A stretch of 64,000 nt of DNA, taken from NCBI GenBank assembly GCA_964415585.1, contig CAYQAY010000001.1, positions 70,008-134,007 on the forward strand, given 5' to 3'. This stretch comes from an uncultured Reyranella sp. (GTDB taxonomy: Bacteria > Pseudomonadota > Alphaproteobacteria > Reyranellales > Reyranellaceae). Each line of letters starts with the position of its first letter. Within the stretch, counting starts at the first letter, position 1. The position numbers are program-made. This document shows, piece by piece, positions 48,001 through 54,000 of this stretch.

Positions 48001-51000
48001 AGCCGCACGCCGGCCGCCTTAAGCGTCGCAATCTCAGCTTCGCTCCAGGGCTGCGAAGGGACCTTCTCGCCAGGGCCTACAAAGTTCCACCAGATCACTC
48101 GCGGGGCGGCGTCCCACAGCGCGCCCGGTGCACGGATCGCTCGAAGCCCGCCCGCTTCGGGTCCGTGCAGTGGGTTCTGCACGCCGTCGGCCAGGACCTG
48201 GCCGAGGATGCGCTGCAGGAGCAAGGCTGGCAGCATATCCAATTCGAGACGGTCCACGGCCTCCGAGAGAGCTCCGGCCGCGGCGGCGACGGCGAGCAAC
48301 AACGGATCACTCTGCCCGGCGTCGACCTCCATGGCCCACGCCGCCACCCGGCCAGCAATCTGACGGGCCTCCGCAGCAGGCATGCCCGCAGCGCGGTCAA
48401 ATTGCGCCCCCACCGTCCAGACACGCCAGCGTGCGACCTGGGCATCGGCCTTGGCAGCGGCCTGCGCGCCGGCGTCGGCATTCAGCTCCAGGGCGCGTGT
48501 GCGGATTTCTTCCCAAGCTGCGTTCCAGACCAGCCCCTCGAGGCCCGGCGCGGCCGTAAGGGCCCGAGCCAGACGGGCCGCGGCGAAGCGGGGCATGGGC
48601 GGGCGCGGCAGCATGAGGAGATTGAGCAGAGCCTCCGGATCCAGGGGGCGCCAGGCGACGGCGAAAACCAGGGGCAATACCTGTAACGCCCCGCGCCAGG
48701 GTGACGGGCTGGAGAGGCCGAGGGCGGGCAGTCCGCGGGCGCCCAGCGCCCGATCAAGCAGGGCCGTGTCTCCGTCTGGCGCCAGCACTACCGTGCCCTC
48801 GAGCAGTTCCGCAGGTGCAGCGGCCAGCCAATCCGCAACTGTTTCGGCCGCCATCAAGGCCGTATCGGACTCGACCATAACGAAGCTGCCGTCGCCGACG
48901 AGCCGCTCAGGCAAAGCCCCAGCCAACGCGGCCTGCACGCGCCGAAGGTCCGATCCTTCGTTGGCTGTGGCGCGGCCTTGATGCTCCTCGACAGCCACGC
49001 CCGCCGTCGCCAAGACGTCCACAAGCGCCGCCCACAAGGGGGGCAGACCACCCCGAGGCTCTAGGAGCAATAACCGGACGACGCGCAGCCCTGGGCGCTC
49101 GGCCACAGCCCGTAACAGGGCCACGGCGCGGTCGACGAGTCCCGGGGACATGGCGGTGCCAGCGCCCTCCGCCGCAGCGAGATCGTCGATCCGCAAGGCG
49201 CCGATCGGACCGCGCGCCCAGCCGCCCGCCACGAGCGAATCGCGCCAGGCGAGGAGGGTCGCGGCAGTGGACCAGGGATCCTTGGCGAAGGACTCCGTCC
49301 AGAAGCGATGTCCATTGCTGGCCGCGCGAAGCTTGGCCGCATAGGCTGCGATGCGCACTGCGTGAGGCGCAGTCGGCCCGGAAAGACCCAGCTGCGACTC
49401 GAGCGCCTCGACCAGCCGCGCCGGTCCCACGATGGCCGCATCGACAGCGCCGGAAGGCACAGGGGCGTCCGGATAAGTCCGCCCGTCAGCCGCGATTCCC
49501 AAGTAGAGCTCCACCGACAGCCCCTCCCCCTTATTTTGAGCGAATCTACCGCCGAGCATCGCTCGCCGATATGCAATCCACGGACGTATCCCATGAAAGA
49601 TCAGTAAAACCAGGGTTGAAGCGGCGCAAGCGTTGTCCCTCAACCCCTTGTCGGGCGGACAAGTCGCGCAGCGTGAGGTCCATGACTTCGAGGCCGACTC
49701 CGCCATTCAGCCGGCGCACGATCTCCATCAGCGCGAGCGTTGCGGCGATCACCCCGACAAACGGTACGCCGACAGTTCGGGAGGCGATCTCTAGCAAGCC
49801 GCAGTCATCGAGCCCGCGTGTAGAGAGGTCCTTGTAGGCCGCCGAACCTGCGGCGGATTGGCGGTCGACGGCGCGTATGGTCTCCTCCCCACGCCAGCGT
49901 TTGCGAGCCGAGACGCTGCCAGGAAAGGTGTGCAGGCGCATGGCCAAGTATTCCTGAGGACCTGCGCCTAAGCCGGCATCCACCACCAAACCGAAACGCG
50001 AATCCTCCAGTGCTACCCGGGCAAGGGTGTTGTCCACCCCGCAAAACAGGATGCGTGGGTCGTCCTCGTCCAGGAAGAGGTCACCCGAGAACCGCCGCTC
50101 GACGAGCCGGGTCTTGAAGCCTCGCGCCTCAGCCCAGGCCGCCATCTCGCGGGTCTTCAGTCGCCCCGCGCGTTCGAGCCGCGTCAGGATCGACGTGCTA
50201 TCGTTGGCCGCCGTCAAGCGGTCGAAGTCCTGAAGAGTGAGCTCGACATCAGCGGGCCGGGCGAAGGGCAGCAGTCCAAGTACCCACAGGAAGGCTTGCC
50301 CGAGATGTCCTAGTCCCAACACCCACAGCTTCGACGGTGCGACCCACTCAGCGGGCCCCGAGGCGGAGCGCCAGGGCGCGCTTGGATCCCACAGCGAGAG
50401 GCCAACTTCCCGTTCGCCGGCCATCTGGTTACCGCGAAGCCGCTGAAACACCTCGGCGACCGCCAAGGCTCCTGCCAGCACAGCCGCGGGGATATCGTGA
50501 CCTCTTTCCGGAAGGCGGGCCGCCTCGCCCGCCGGAAAGACGCCGCCGCGCCAATCGCCGAAGGTGACTTGAAGGGCATCGGCAGGCGCACCCGTACCGA
50601 GCCAAACTAGCGGGCCGGAGTGCGTACGGCCTTGGCGCGGGTTAGCACCCAGCGTCGCGACAGCTTCTGCCAGCGTCATGCCGAGCCCCGGGAGTTGGAC
50701 CAGGAGCGGCTCTTGCAGGTCGCCCACAACCTCGACGCCACCCAGCAGGGCCCGCCGCCCCGTGTTGACCATGGTGAGCAATGCTGACTGGATGGCCGGC
50801 GAGCGCTTAGCGCCCGGGCCGAGACCGATGGTCATGCGATAGCCCCTAAAGAGCGCGAAGGCTTCCTCGATGCTGACCGCCTCACCGCTGTCGAGGGCCA
50901 TTTTCACGCCGCGATGAAGAGTGTCGGCGCGAATGTCGTTCAGCCTGTTGTTCATCAGACGAGGGTCCCTGTCTTGAGGGTCCGCCGGGCGCGCCAACCA

Positions 51001-54000
51001 CTGAGGTCAGTCCAGCGGTGCGAGCCTTCGTAACGATAAAGTCCGAGGCGGTGACGCCAAACCGGCTTATGGGCAGAGCGCTCGACAATGATGGCGATGT
51101 GGCCTGGACGGGCCACCATGGGGTTGCAACGGTCGGCCTCGCTCTGGCGAGCGTCGCCGAGGTGCGTGTGCACGTCGGCGAGTACCTGCAGGCCTCGGCT
51201 CCGGCAGATGCTCCAGAGCTGCTCGAAGGCGTCTGCGTAAAGCACGCAGACACCCGTGCTGTAGGCCTTGGGGTCGAGGTCGTCGTAGAAAACGCAGACC
51301 GTGAAGATGCGCCGCTCACCTTCCCGCTTGCCCAGCAGAAAGGCGCCGCTCTCATGGCGGCCGGCGCCACGGCGATGGAGTTCAGCCATGAGGCCGAGCC
51401 AATCGCGGCGGCAAATCGAGAGCTTGTCAGCCACCGCGCACCCCCGTGTAGTCGGAGCCGTTCAACAGCTCATGCACTGCCTCGAGATAGAGCTGGAGAC
51501 CCTTCTCGGGTCGCCAGATCTGAGACGGATGCTCAACTCGCCAGTTATCGTGGCCGGGGATGCTCTGCCGATCGCAAGGCAGGTAGAGACATCCCCCCTC
51601 GCGCCAATCCGGGCGGAAGACCGCCGGGACCCGCCGGCGCCCCGTGGGCCAGCGGCTCACCGGAAGAGGGGTGTTGGCGTCGGTGTCCCACAGACGCGCC
51701 GTGGGCGGACTCTGGGGATAGCCGGTGCAGTCGAAGCGAAAGCCATAGGTGTCGGGCGCGCCCGATCGCGGGGCGGCGGCAACCTCAACGTCGACGAGCG
51801 GCCAAGCGAAGCGGACGACCCTCAAGCGGCCGAGATGGATGGCCAGTTGGAAGGCCCCTCCGTCCATCTCGTCTTTGAAGGCCTGCTCGTCCGGGCGGCG
51901 GATGAGAGGCGCGCTCATGCCCTCAGCCCTCGACGCGCTTGATCGGCACGAGGGTGAAGCCGATGTCGCACTTGGCCCGAACCAAGGCGCCGATCTGGAC
52001 GTCGGGGTCAGGGCGGTCGGTCGTGCCGGTGATCTGCAGTACGTGCTCGGTAGCGTCGACGTCGGACATCTTCAGCTTGTCGACGTACCAGCGCTTGACC
52101 TGGTTCACTGTGGTCGAGGGGGCAAAGTTGTGGTGCATCTCCAGCTCGTCCGCGTAGTTCAGCGTGACGCGGATCTTCCTGCAGCGGTGGACATGCACCC
52201 GGGCCTTGTCTTGGACGCCCTGCGTGCGCAGCGGCTTGTCGGGCTGCAACGCGCTCTCGTCCTCACCAGCAAAGACGAGCGCCTCACCGGTCTCGGCGCC
52301 CAGGGCGGCCGCCGCAGCGATCACGGCGCCGGGCGTCGCGTTGTCGGGGACTTGGATCAGTTCGATCGGGCGGTGCCCCTCGAACTGTAGAAACAGCTTC
52401 ATCTGCGACATAGGAAGAACACCTCTTGCTCAAAGGGCGGAACTCACCGCCGCAAGAGGTTCAAGACAGTCGCAGACCGAACCGGAAATCACGGGCCGCA
52501 GAACCGATCATGATGTGAGGCCGTCAGCAGGGCAGATGAAGAAGAAGGGACAGGTGGGACAGGTGCGCGCATTGCGCTTCGGATCAAACCGACCGGCGGA
52601 GATGCCAGCGAGCGCGGTTGAGGCTTCGTCCTTGGCCTTGGCCAGCTTGTCCGCGGCCAAAGTCCCGTCGCGTTCGCGTCCGTCCACGAGAGAGATATGA
52701 GTGAAGGTTGCCGCTTTCCCCTCGTCCTGCGCCACCATGGCTTGCAGAAGAGCGTAGCGCGCCTTTGGAGTCTCGCCGGTGCGGGCGAGCCGCCCAGCCT
52801 TGAGCCGTTGGATGACGATGCCGGCGCCGCCGGCCTGGATGTGGTCGGCGCGCGCTGTCACTGTGACGCCTTCGATCACGATCTGCCGCTCCGTCGACAG
52901 CGGGCGGCCGGACATCGCCGCCCCAGCCTTGGCCAGCATGCGCTCCGCGGCCCCTCGGTAGTGCACCGCCGCCGGATGATCGGCAGGTCCCCTGGCGAGC
53001 CAAGTTTCAGAGAGGTGGGCGGCGAACCCTCCTCTCCCCTGCCCGGCCGGACTCCGTAGCCAAGCGACACCCGTGCGGATCACATCGTGAAACCGAAGGT
53101 AAGGAGTATCGGCGAGCCTTCGCGACAGGCCCAGCGCCTCACCATAATAGTAGCGGCGGGGACAAGTCAGATAGTCCTCGATAGCTGTCACGCCGAGCAT
53201 CTCACCGAGCGGCTGCGCTGCCGATTGAGTGCCAAAGGCTCGCGGGGCTGGCCCGGGATCGATCCATTGGGGCTCGGGCCCGCCGCCGGGCGCCAGGATC
53301 GGCACGATCGGCTTCAGTAGGTCGGAAGCGCGTGGCCGGGACGAGCCGCCGTAGCGCTTGGCGCGGGAGACGGTAAGCTTGTCGCGCGCCCGGGAAAGGC
53401 CGACAAACATCAGGCTCTGCTCTTCTGCGTCGGCGCTCATCAGCGGATCCGGGTCCACAAGGCCGGGCGGGAGCGGACAAAGGTCGGCCCGGGCGTTGGG
53501 CGGGAAATAGGATGGACTGACCGACGGAATATAGACTGTGGGGTACTCGAGCCCCTTCGCCGCGTGCACGGTCATGAGCCGGACGGCGTCTACGCCCGCG
53601 GCCCCTGCCGGTAGGCGCCGCAGTTCCTTCTCCTCGTCCAGCACTTCGAGACGCCGGACATGCTCCAAAAACGCACGCTTCGGATCGCGGCCGCTCGGCG
53701 GCCGGTGCCCGAACGCCAACGTCAACAGCTGATAGGCGGCGAGACGCCGCTGCTGGGCGCCCACGTCCGTGCCGGCAAAAGGCGGGGCATAGACCGCCCC
53801 GGCTCGGCCGAAGAGATAGGCCGTCAGGACCGCGTGCGGCGGCGTCATGAAGCTCACGTCGGCAAGGTCATCTGCCAGCCGACCAAGGCCCGTCCTTCCC
53901 TCGTCGGAGAGTTTGATCTCATTTACCCGCCGCAGCGCCGCCAGGAGGGACGTGGCGGTCTCATGCCGGAAGCGGAACACCTCAAGGACATCGCTAACCG

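Follow-up and report, generated by a model that had tools for sequence, protein, structure and literature searches.

Which genes make up a native bacterial ISG15-like (Bil) defence system, and how is such a system switched on upon infection? The question is raised by a 64-kb stretch of DNA (hereafter the window) from an uncultured Reyranella sp., positions 70,008 to 134,007 of contig CAYQAY010000001.1 (assembly GCA_964415585.1), which carries the genes bilABCD for a ubiquitin-like protein (Ubl) and its conjugation and deconjugation enzymes. All gene coordinates given below are window positions, and the Bil genes lie on the minus strand. The four-gene cassette is of a known kind that is covered by the databases and that PADLOC would annotate automatically. 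A link between Bil expression and infection was not found to be addressed in the papers on the characterised systems, in which expression was driven by an arabinose promoter; a regulatory layer would have been missed there, because only bilABCD had been cloned for that work, and placed under pBAD. Here we describe three genes directly upstream of bilABCD and propose, with a probability of about 0.5, that the native Type I Bil system comprises seven genes, of which the first three would form a hitherto undescribed infection-sensing switch that fires two matching promoters, with a hairpin in the bilA leader in addition. The native trio, the pair of promoter-like elements and the leader hairpin are the part of the locus that deserves follow-up.

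Loci encoding relatives of BilA were collected from one genome per species (GTDB), which yielded 49 loci, and all window proteins were compared with them. Enough upstream sequence to assess the gene directly 5' of bilA was available for 47 loci, and in 40 of these that gene encodes a fusion of an M78 peptidase and a UvrD helicase. The 40 loci span the Alpha-, Beta- and Gammaproteobacteria, the Planctomycetota, the Acidobacteriota and the Chloroflexota (the groups that carry the trio include the Caulobacterales, Sphingomonadales, Hyphomicrobiales, Alcaligenaceae and Lysobacter), and their outer flanks vary. The order and orientation of the trio are almost always constant: orf263, orf214 and the fusion gene, followed by bilABCD. 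The AddAB-like, SbcCD-like and Shango genes that also adjoin Bil in the window are only sporadic neighbours of Bil among the 49 loci. The same seven-gene block was found on metagenome contigs, beside AbiE, Fic, TrwC or integrase genes. The family of orf214 has 333 members, and all four members examined for their neighbourhood, two of them at 25-29% identity, reside in the seven-gene layout. The trio is found in Collimonas as well: in Collimonas sp. H4R21, the BilA of which is 99% identical to the characterised protein of Collimonas sp. OK412, genes for proteins of 277, 209 and 1117 amino acids (the last an M78/UvrD fusion) lie directly upstream of bilABCD. The conserved unit is seven genes, with bilABCD as its distal half; the sequence-only reading, which had delimited a unit of four genes, drew it too small. 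A literature search for the trio in connection with Bil (M78, UvrD, helicase, ubiquitin) retrieved no description, and the fixed link between the trio and Bil appears to be new.

The position upstream of bilA is of interest also in the loci that lack the helicase fusion. In locus L042 it is occupied by an HTH_3 and Peptidase_M78 pair resembling CapH/CapP (8865-9798 of that locus), and in L028 (8029-9805) and L030 (7936-9748) by a triplet of divergently transcribed genes, one of which encodes an M78 peptidase; in L038 (3281-4761) the upstream genes are limited to those for the sigma-like and the 214-aa protein. CapH/CapP are reported to adjoin 15% of the Type II Bil operons, and CapK/CapS adjoin five Bil operons (Corbett laboratory).

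The main alternative is that the trio is a defence system in its own right, combining helicase and nuclease in the manner of Gabija, AddAB or Hachiman, which happens to share the island with Bil and does not regulate it. Defence genes tend to cluster, and simple proximity could be explained in that manner. However, the trio keeps its adjacency and order across phyla whereas the flanks vary, even distant orf214 relatives keep the seven-gene layout, and Bil loci devoid of the trio hold known types of regulator in the very same position. We consider an independent system unlikely on these grounds, and on those that follow from the proteins and from the DNA motif described below.

The fusion gene (52508-55855, minus strand) encodes a protein of 1115 amino acids that combines an IrrE-like M78 peptidase, an SF1 helicase of the UvrD type and a PD-(D/E)XK-like part, as judged from Pfam domains and conserved motifs. 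The Pfam matches comprise Peptidase_M78 at the N-terminus (E 6e-16), UvrD-helicase (E 5e-58), UvrD_C, and PDDEXK_1 at the C-terminus (E 3e-13). In a comparison of 32 orthologues, H83 and H87 of the HExxH motif were invariant and E84 nearly so, and the Walker A motif (GPGTGKT) and VDEYQD were conserved; the sequence suggests a working helicase joined to a working peptidase. The match to PDDEXK_1, together with matches to the UvrD-helicase models GajB and RTasHel of PADLOC (E 1e-59 to 6e-62), is what an independent helicase-nuclease system would lead one to expect. The nuclease-like domain (residues about 890-1110, window 52508-52900) has the invariant cysteines C898, C1099, C1102 and C1108, in the cluster pattern of the AddB/Cas4 type. 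Its motif III reads R1017-L-K1019, with the arginine invariant in 32 of the 32 orthologues, whereas AddB-like nucleases have D/E-x-K at this position and the AddB-like protein of the window reads LDLK. The domain probably binds Fe-S. Because the acidic residue of motif III has been replaced by an invariant arginine, it is probably catalytically dead, and this replacement argues against a role of the fusion protein as an effector nuclease.

The three genes of the trio are translationally coupled (52508-57284, minus strand). The middle gene, orf214 (55852-56496, minus strand), encodes a protein of 214 amino acids with its true start at M44 of an open reading frame (ORF) of 257 codons, and has ATGA start/stop overlaps with both of its neighbours. 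An AlphaFold2 model of the protein has a predicted local distance difference test score (pLDDT) of 76.9 overall and contains a core (residues 97-160) of five helices with a pLDDT above 90. The top Foldseek matches of this core are all helix-turn-helix (HTH) proteins of the Xre/Cro type: the 434 repressor, the N-terminal domain of CapH, C.AhdI, DdrO and SinR. Two of these, DdrO and CapH, are substrates of M78 peptidases.

The first gene, orf263 (56493-57284, minus strand), encodes a 263-aa protein that resembles the sigma-70 family and has a putative HTH of the region-4 type at its C-terminus. Sigma70_r4_2 of Pfam was matched in 8 of the 27 orthologues (best E 6.8e-7), and an hhalign comparison with RpoE of E. 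coli was collinear over regions 2-4 with an E-value of 6.6e-4 at a probability of 27%. A profile search against the PDB returned sigma matches below the threshold only. The protein is described here as sigma-like, and we refrain from calling it a sigma factor.

A bipartite, promoter-like motif connects the two halves of the unit. It lies upstream of bilA in the 96-nt spacer that separates this gene from the fusion gene (52453-52492, minus strand; GATTTCCGGTT-N12-GTCTTGAACC), and a second copy is found at orf263 (57284-57323, minus strand; GATTTCCGGTG-N12-GTCTTGAGCC), where it ends 6 nt before the ATG. The spacing of the bipartite element is equal at both sites, which have the core GATTTCCGGT-N13-GTCTTGA in common. 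The mere number of 10-mers, 2 against an expected 1.8, carries no significance. Unlike this count, the placement of the motif is significant. A position weight matrix (PWM) was built only from the sites that precede bilA in 31 distinct sequences of other genomes, and in a scan of both strands of the whole window its two top scores were the bilA site (21.9 bits) and the orf263 site (17.1 bits). In the other loci, the best PWM score outside the bilA spacer fell 14-96 nt upstream of the orf263 ortholog in 21 of 28 cases, a target region that makes up roughly 1% of the positions searched. The distance between the -10-like element and the ATG is 6-10 nt in many genomes, a leaderless layout. Five of the six loci that lack every trio gene have no above-threshold motif upstream of bilA, and the sixth (L028) reaches a threshold-level score only, in an unusually long, AT-rich leader. 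In the Collimonas clade the motif has a different sequence, and is again common to the two units of that clade. A scan of 49-58 kb of the window for sigma-70 consensus promoters found none. That one motif precedes both transcription units speaks against an independent defence system that merely shares the island.

The 5' leader of bilA contains a two-tier hairpin (52421-52460, minus strand), the 3' arm of which covers the sequence AAGAGG, likely the ribosome-binding site of bilA. Its minimum free energy is -23.3 kcal/mol (z -2.84). RNAalifold on nine alphaproteobacterial leaders found 13 pairs, four of them with compensatory changes, and analogous leader hairpins of different sequence are present in other clades. 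When applied to 15 leaders across clades, RNAalifold returned no consensus structure, because the clades do not align. No Rfam family was matched in the whole window at the gathering threshold. The evidence for the leader hairpin is suggestive only.

Taken at face value, this gene anatomy points, at even odds or slightly better, to a trio that serves Bil as its native sensor and regulator. There would be two transcription units, the orf263 operon and bilABCD, each behind the same promoter-like motif. The helicase module of the fusion protein would sense foreign or damaged DNA, upon which the fused M78 peptidase would be activated and would cleave or release the HTH protein encoded by orf214, in the manner of CapP/CapH and IrrE/DdrO. 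The sigma-like orf263 protein thus freed would then transcribe its own operon as well as bilABCD, and the leader hairpin could add a translational check by hiding the ribosome-binding site. Fixed as it is from Collimonas to the Planctomycetota and Chloroflexota, and with a motif common to its two units, the trio offers a testable scheme of how a ubiquitin-like immune pathway could be regulated.

Four observations weigh against such a circuit. The Foldseek E-values of the orf214 core are weak (0.03-0.7, at target TM-scores of 0.65-0.8), and in a comparison of the sequence profile with the PDB the Xre matches stayed below the threshold. The orf263 protein of the window itself gives only weak matches, to HTH_36 (E 0.021) and to RpoH (E 0.01). 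Instead of a promoter, the motif common to both units could be an operator. Finally, E. coli is protected by a Bil clone that lacks the trio and is induced from pBAD (Millman et al. 2022), from which it follows that the trio is not needed for the chemistry of conjugation; an independent defence system would also fit this result. It remains our preferred reading that the trio regulates Bil.

The bilABCD order Ubl, E2-like conjugating enzyme, JAB protease and E1-like activating enzyme was read correctly from the sequence: four adjacent, co-directional ORFs of the expected lengths (162, 163, 159 and about 470 amino acids) are present. bilA (51923-52411, minus strand) encodes 162 amino acids ending in VPIKRVEG, with the stop directly after Gly162, and has a distinct coding signal (GC content at third codon positions of 0.86). 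bilB (51427-51918, minus strand; 163 amino acids) encodes the E2-like enzyme, with the predicted catalytic Cys115 in the motif LPCDR and with His123. bilC (50955-51434, minus strand; 159 amino acids, GTG start) encodes a JAB/JAMM metalloprotease, the deconjugase, and bilD (49546-50955, minus strand) the E1-like enzyme. bilA and bilB are separated by 4 nt, bilB and bilC overlap by 8 nt, and bilC and bilD overlap by 1 nt at the ATG at 50955. In its longest form the bilD ORF extends over 49546-50997, with 483 amino acids from a TTG, and the ATG at 50955 is M15 of that ORF. Most likely this ATG is the start, giving 469 amino acids, since it overlaps the bilC stop by 1 nt, distant orthologs align only from residues 15-25 on, the match to the PADLOC BilD profile begins at residue 21, and the gene on a 96%-identical contig is called at 469 amino acids.

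All four proteins were recognised at full length by the PADLOC models: BilA with an E-value of 5.7e-48 (residues 1-162 of 162), and BilB (9.4e-61), BilC (1.5e-59) and BilD (1.1e-154) with the whole profile covered. In Pfam, BilB matches PF24702 (DUF7665, currently named 'BilB-like'; E 2.6e-60) and BilC has a weak match to Prok-JAB (E 2e-5), and newer precomputed Pfam labels on the orthologs read BilA_UBL_2, BilB-like and BilD_N. The verified sequences of Collimonas sp. OK412 (Table S2 of Millman et al.) were aligned to the window proteins, and the identities amounted to 34% end to end for BilA, 52% for BilB, 51% for BilC and 43% for BilD over the 399 residues available. In these alignments G163 of the Collimonas BilA corresponds to Gly162, C113 of BilB to C115, and G219 and C385 of BilD to G216 and C385, respectively. 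Defence is lost upon mutation of G163, G219, C385 or the JAB active site in Collimonas (Millman et al. 2022; Hor et al. 2024).

The AlphaFold2 model of BilA, made from an alignment with 58 homologs, has a pLDDT of 95.1 and a predicted TM-score of 0.89, and Foldseek matches it best to linear di-ubiquitin and to ISG15 (E 7e-10 to 1e-8 over 155-166 columns). The model confirms BilA as a tandem beta-grasp protein, as had been proposed from its length. The motifs that had been quoted for the other three proteins are all present. Of the two cysteines in the stretch GGC110LYLPC115DR that had been put forward for the E2-like protein, C115 is conserved in at least 90% of the orthologs and C110 is not conserved (29-34 orthologs from other genomes), whereas H123 is invariant. 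In BilC, the motif H89-T-H91...S98-E-A-D101 together with E28 makes up a complete JAMM motif, invariant in 29 orthologs. In BilD, the Rossmann motif is present as G214-L-G216-H-L-G219, and G214, G216, G219, D308, N309 and C385 are invariant in 34 orthologs, in which D243 and D245 are conserved too. Established here are the identities of the four genes, their intact frames, the fold of BilA and the conservation of the catalytic residues; we conclude that the cassette is very probably an intact Type I BilABCD anti-phage system. Two points stand against this assignment. The BilB profile has no significant similarity to any solved structure in the PDB or to the BilB of Ensifer aridi (E 0.15), and the activity, the target and the defence go beyond the sequence, being derived from orthology to Collimonas.

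By that same analogy the chemistry can be outlined with good confidence, and a thioester relay from E1 to E2 through C385 and C115, followed by conjugation to a phage protein and trimming by the JAMM protease, is highly probable. BilD would adenylate the free Gly162 of BilA and take BilA over as a thioester on Cys385; BilA would then move to Cys115 of BilB and from there onto lysines of a phage structural protein, and BilC would remove or recycle the conjugates. The Collimonas system acts on the central tail fibre of the phage, which leaves the progeny tailless or poorly infective.

Bil systems have been split into Type I, with Collimonas as its representative, and Type II, which takes in the operons formerly called CEHH/6C, mostly from the Rhizobiaceae (Chambers et al. 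2024). The gene order Ubl-E2-JAB-E1 is identical in Type II, and in phmmer searches of the PDB the BilC of the window detects the E. aridi BilC (8tyx, E 1.4e-7), so that an Ensifer-like Type II cassette, or another bacterial Ubl system (Bub, 6A-6E), had to be considered. The Ubl would then have to be processed by BilC, and the E. aridi structures could be transferred directly. In the same searches, BilA, BilB and BilD of the window gave chance-level matches only and no Bil chain. Since only BilC detectably resembles the solved E. aridi chains, the window locus is assigned to Type I, in line with the 34-52% identity to the Type I Collimonas proteins. The Ubl of E. aridi TW10, a Type II system, is a single beta-grasp domain from which BilC removes Ala98 after Gly97 (Chambers et al. 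2024), whereas the predicted fold of the window BilA comprises two such domains with zero residues after the glycine. A Type II identity, or that of another Ubl system, is in our view very improbable.

The assignment to Type I bears on two claims of the sequence-only reading. The first was that the Ubl is 'pre-matured'. C-terminal processing would indeed be unneeded, and this part stands. The free glycine is no peculiarity of the window, since all 58 aligned homologs end in VEG; it is the norm of the Type I family and not the mark of a special variant. In agreement with this, the terminal glycine of BilA was reported to be fully conserved, with overhangs of 2-9 amino acids in only 12 homologs (Hor et al.). 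The second was that such operons, which conjugate the Ubl to phage structural proteins, were characterised in, among others, a Rhizobiales strain. That strain, E. aridi TW10, is of Type II, and the evidence for conjugation to a phage structural protein comes from Type I: it was obtained in E. coli with the system of Collimonas sp. OK412 (Millman et al. 2022; Hor et al. 2024).

A further possibility is that the E1-like protein is a sulfur-carrier activator of the MoeB/ThiF kind with a MoaD/ThiS-like carrier as its Ubl, and that the locus serves cofactor biosynthesis. The E1-like adenylation folds are common to both types of enzyme, and one distant BilD ortholog has a weak ThiF match in Pfam. 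The BilD of the window has no ThiF match in Pfam or NCBIfam, however, and it is accompanied by a JAMM protease and by an E2-like protein whose cysteine is conserved. Moreover, the Ubl is a tandem-domain protein like ISG15 and di-ubiquitin, none of the adjacent genes belongs to cofactor biosynthesis (E2, JAB, helicase and defence genes are found instead), and the proteins are orthologous to those of a verified defence system. The MoeB/ThiF identity, which had been named beforehand as the finding that would overturn a Bil assignment, was thus looked for and not encountered, and we regard its probability as negligible.

Alternatively, the cassette could be a decaying, non-functional remnant that travels as a passenger on the element. 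Decay may have occurred among relatives: bilA is truncated in L044 (10001-10201) and split beside transposase-like ORFs in L049 (9977-10494), and the BilB of L047 (2579-3049) has a methionine in place of the catalytic cysteine. In the window, by contrast, the four ORFs are of full length when compared with the profiles, all catalytic residues are intact and the translationally coupled junctions have been kept. A relative that is 96% identical at the DNA level retains protein identities of 97-99%, and many independent samples contain the 7.9-kb sequence in identical form. Decay has at most a slim chance of being the right description, and an intact Type I system remains the reading that we prefer.

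The exact 7.9-kb sequence (49546-57400, all sampled 31-mers) is found in many metagenomes from biofilters, wastewater, sludge, the subsurface and freshwater, and also in runs labelled with more than 10 different organisms. In public runs labelled as RNA it appears as long contigs of flat depth that are effectively genomic, like carry-over of DNA. Because these contigs are flat and genome-like, such runs are uninformative on transcription starts and expression.

The seven-gene unit lies in a defence island beside Shango, probably within the cargo of an integrative conjugative element. The conjugative backbone, entirely on the minus strand, comprises TrbI (8048-9217), VirB8/TrbF (10209-10895), TrbL (10892-12139), TrbE (12908-15364), TrbB (15943-16917), the coupling protein TraG (17501-19498; T4SS-DNA_transf, E 2e-101), a relaxase with DUF3363 (19685-21994), RepA (24184-25413) and a ParB-like protein of 756 amino acids (37258-39528). 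A Strawberry-notch-type helicase of 1466 amino acids (32712-37112, minus strand) has a weak match to the PADLOC model 'mad2', and a Toprim/DUF7146 protein is likewise encoded in the backbone stretch (8048-39528). The left 7.8 kb contain metabolic genes (a flavin monooxygenase, an esterase and a thiolase-like gene) and may lie outside the element. On the other side, contig JBFOML010000903.1 (GCA_040959605.1; L058) is 96.2% identical to the window over 18.1 kb and extends past its right end beyond Shango, where it encodes AbiEi/AbiEii and a tyrosine integrase (1-2019 of L058), the probable integrase end of the element. Bil is placed in the cargo region because it is situated between that integrase end and the transfer genes. 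Against this placement it must be said that no integrase, no tRNA (by tRNA scan) and no recognisable end of the element were found within the window itself. A megablast search of the region 43-60 kb against the PLSDB plasmids gave no match. A complete cassette in the cargo of a conjugative element, as had been supposed, is well supported in both respects, and the cassette is apparently functional.

The Bil unit is directly adjoined on its upstream side by a complete Shango system, which consists of SngC (a DEAD helicase; 57537-59789, E 1e-273), SngB (a BrxD-like ATPase; 59758-61092, E 5e-175) and SngA (PG_binding with TerB_N/TerB/TerB_C; 61085-63889, E 5e-89), all on the minus strand; Shango is also found near Bil in L022 (Devosia). 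Downstream of bilD, and with gaps of 0-31 nt, follow the genes for an AddB-like protein of 894 amino acids (46830-49514, with a GTG at 49514, 31 nt past the bilD stop), an AddA-like protein of 1049 amino acids (43681-46830), an SbcD-like protein (42481-43671) and an SbcC-like protein (39809-42484), tightly packed on the minus strand, and these may be co-transcribed. L063 and L064, both distant loci, likewise have an AddB/AddA-like pair after bilD, and L010 has one of the SbcDC-like type, whereas most loci have neither. The AddAB-like and SbcCD-like genes were considered as part of the conserved unit and rejected, as they stand beside Bil in few loci only. Bil, Shango and the AddAB/SbcCD-like genes co-travel on one conjugative element.

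How, finally, does the locus compare with systems that are known? Millman et al. 2022 and Hor, Wolf and Sorek 2024 described the Type I system of Collimonas sp. OK412, which agrees with the window locus in its four genes, in their order and in a two-domain BilA that ends in glycine; the residues at which mutation abolishes defence (G163, G219 and C385) are conserved in the window, and the same trio stands upstream of bilABCD where a 99%-identical Collimonas BilA is encoded. The sequences are divergent (only 34% identity for BilA), the promoter-like motif is another one, and the host of the window locus is an alphaproteobacterium-like element with a GC content of 66%. The Type II system of E. 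aridi TW10 (Chambers et al. 2024; PDB 8tyx/8tyy and related entries) shares with the window locus the gene order, the logic of an E1-to-E2 relay, the JAMM deconjugase and a homologous BilC, but differs in its single beta-grasp Ubl with Ala98 after Gly97 and in its E2 of the CEHH type.

The human system of ISG15, UBA7, UBE2L6 and USP18 likewise has a tandem Ubl with a dedicated E1, E2 and deconjugase, ISG15 is antiviral, and the BilA model matches ISG15 with an E-value of about 1e-9. The two are only 10-17% identical, however, ISG15 is made as a precursor, the window has no E3 like HERC5, and the deconjugase is a JAMM metalloprotease and not a USP.

On the regulatory side, the trio is most reminiscent of CapH/CapP, IrrE/DdrO and ImmA/ImmR: an M78 peptidase with its HExxH motif is encoded beside an Xre-HTH-like gene, upstream of an immune operon. 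In these pairs, the M78 peptidase cleaves the adjacent Xre-HTH repressor upon DNA damage. In contrast, the peptidase of the window is fused to a UvrD helicase of 900 residues and to a nuclease domain that is degenerate, additional helical domains flank the HTH of the orf214 protein at the N- and C-termini, a third, sigma-like gene is present, and the motif resembles a promoter more than a palindromic operator; cleavage of the orf214 protein is only proposed. Autoregulated extracytoplasmic function (ECF) sigma/anti-sigma systems resemble the trio in having a small sigma-like first gene, a partner gene next to it and the same -35/-10-like motif at both units. They differ in that only region 4 can be detected with any confidence in orf263, that the -35-like element TTTCCGGT is without the usual AAC, and that the partner is HTH-like and does not resemble a known anti-sigma domain. 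If the proposal is true, the trio would extend the set of regulators formed by CapW, CapH/CapP and CapK/CapS with a peptidase-helicase fusion that acts together with a sigma-like factor.

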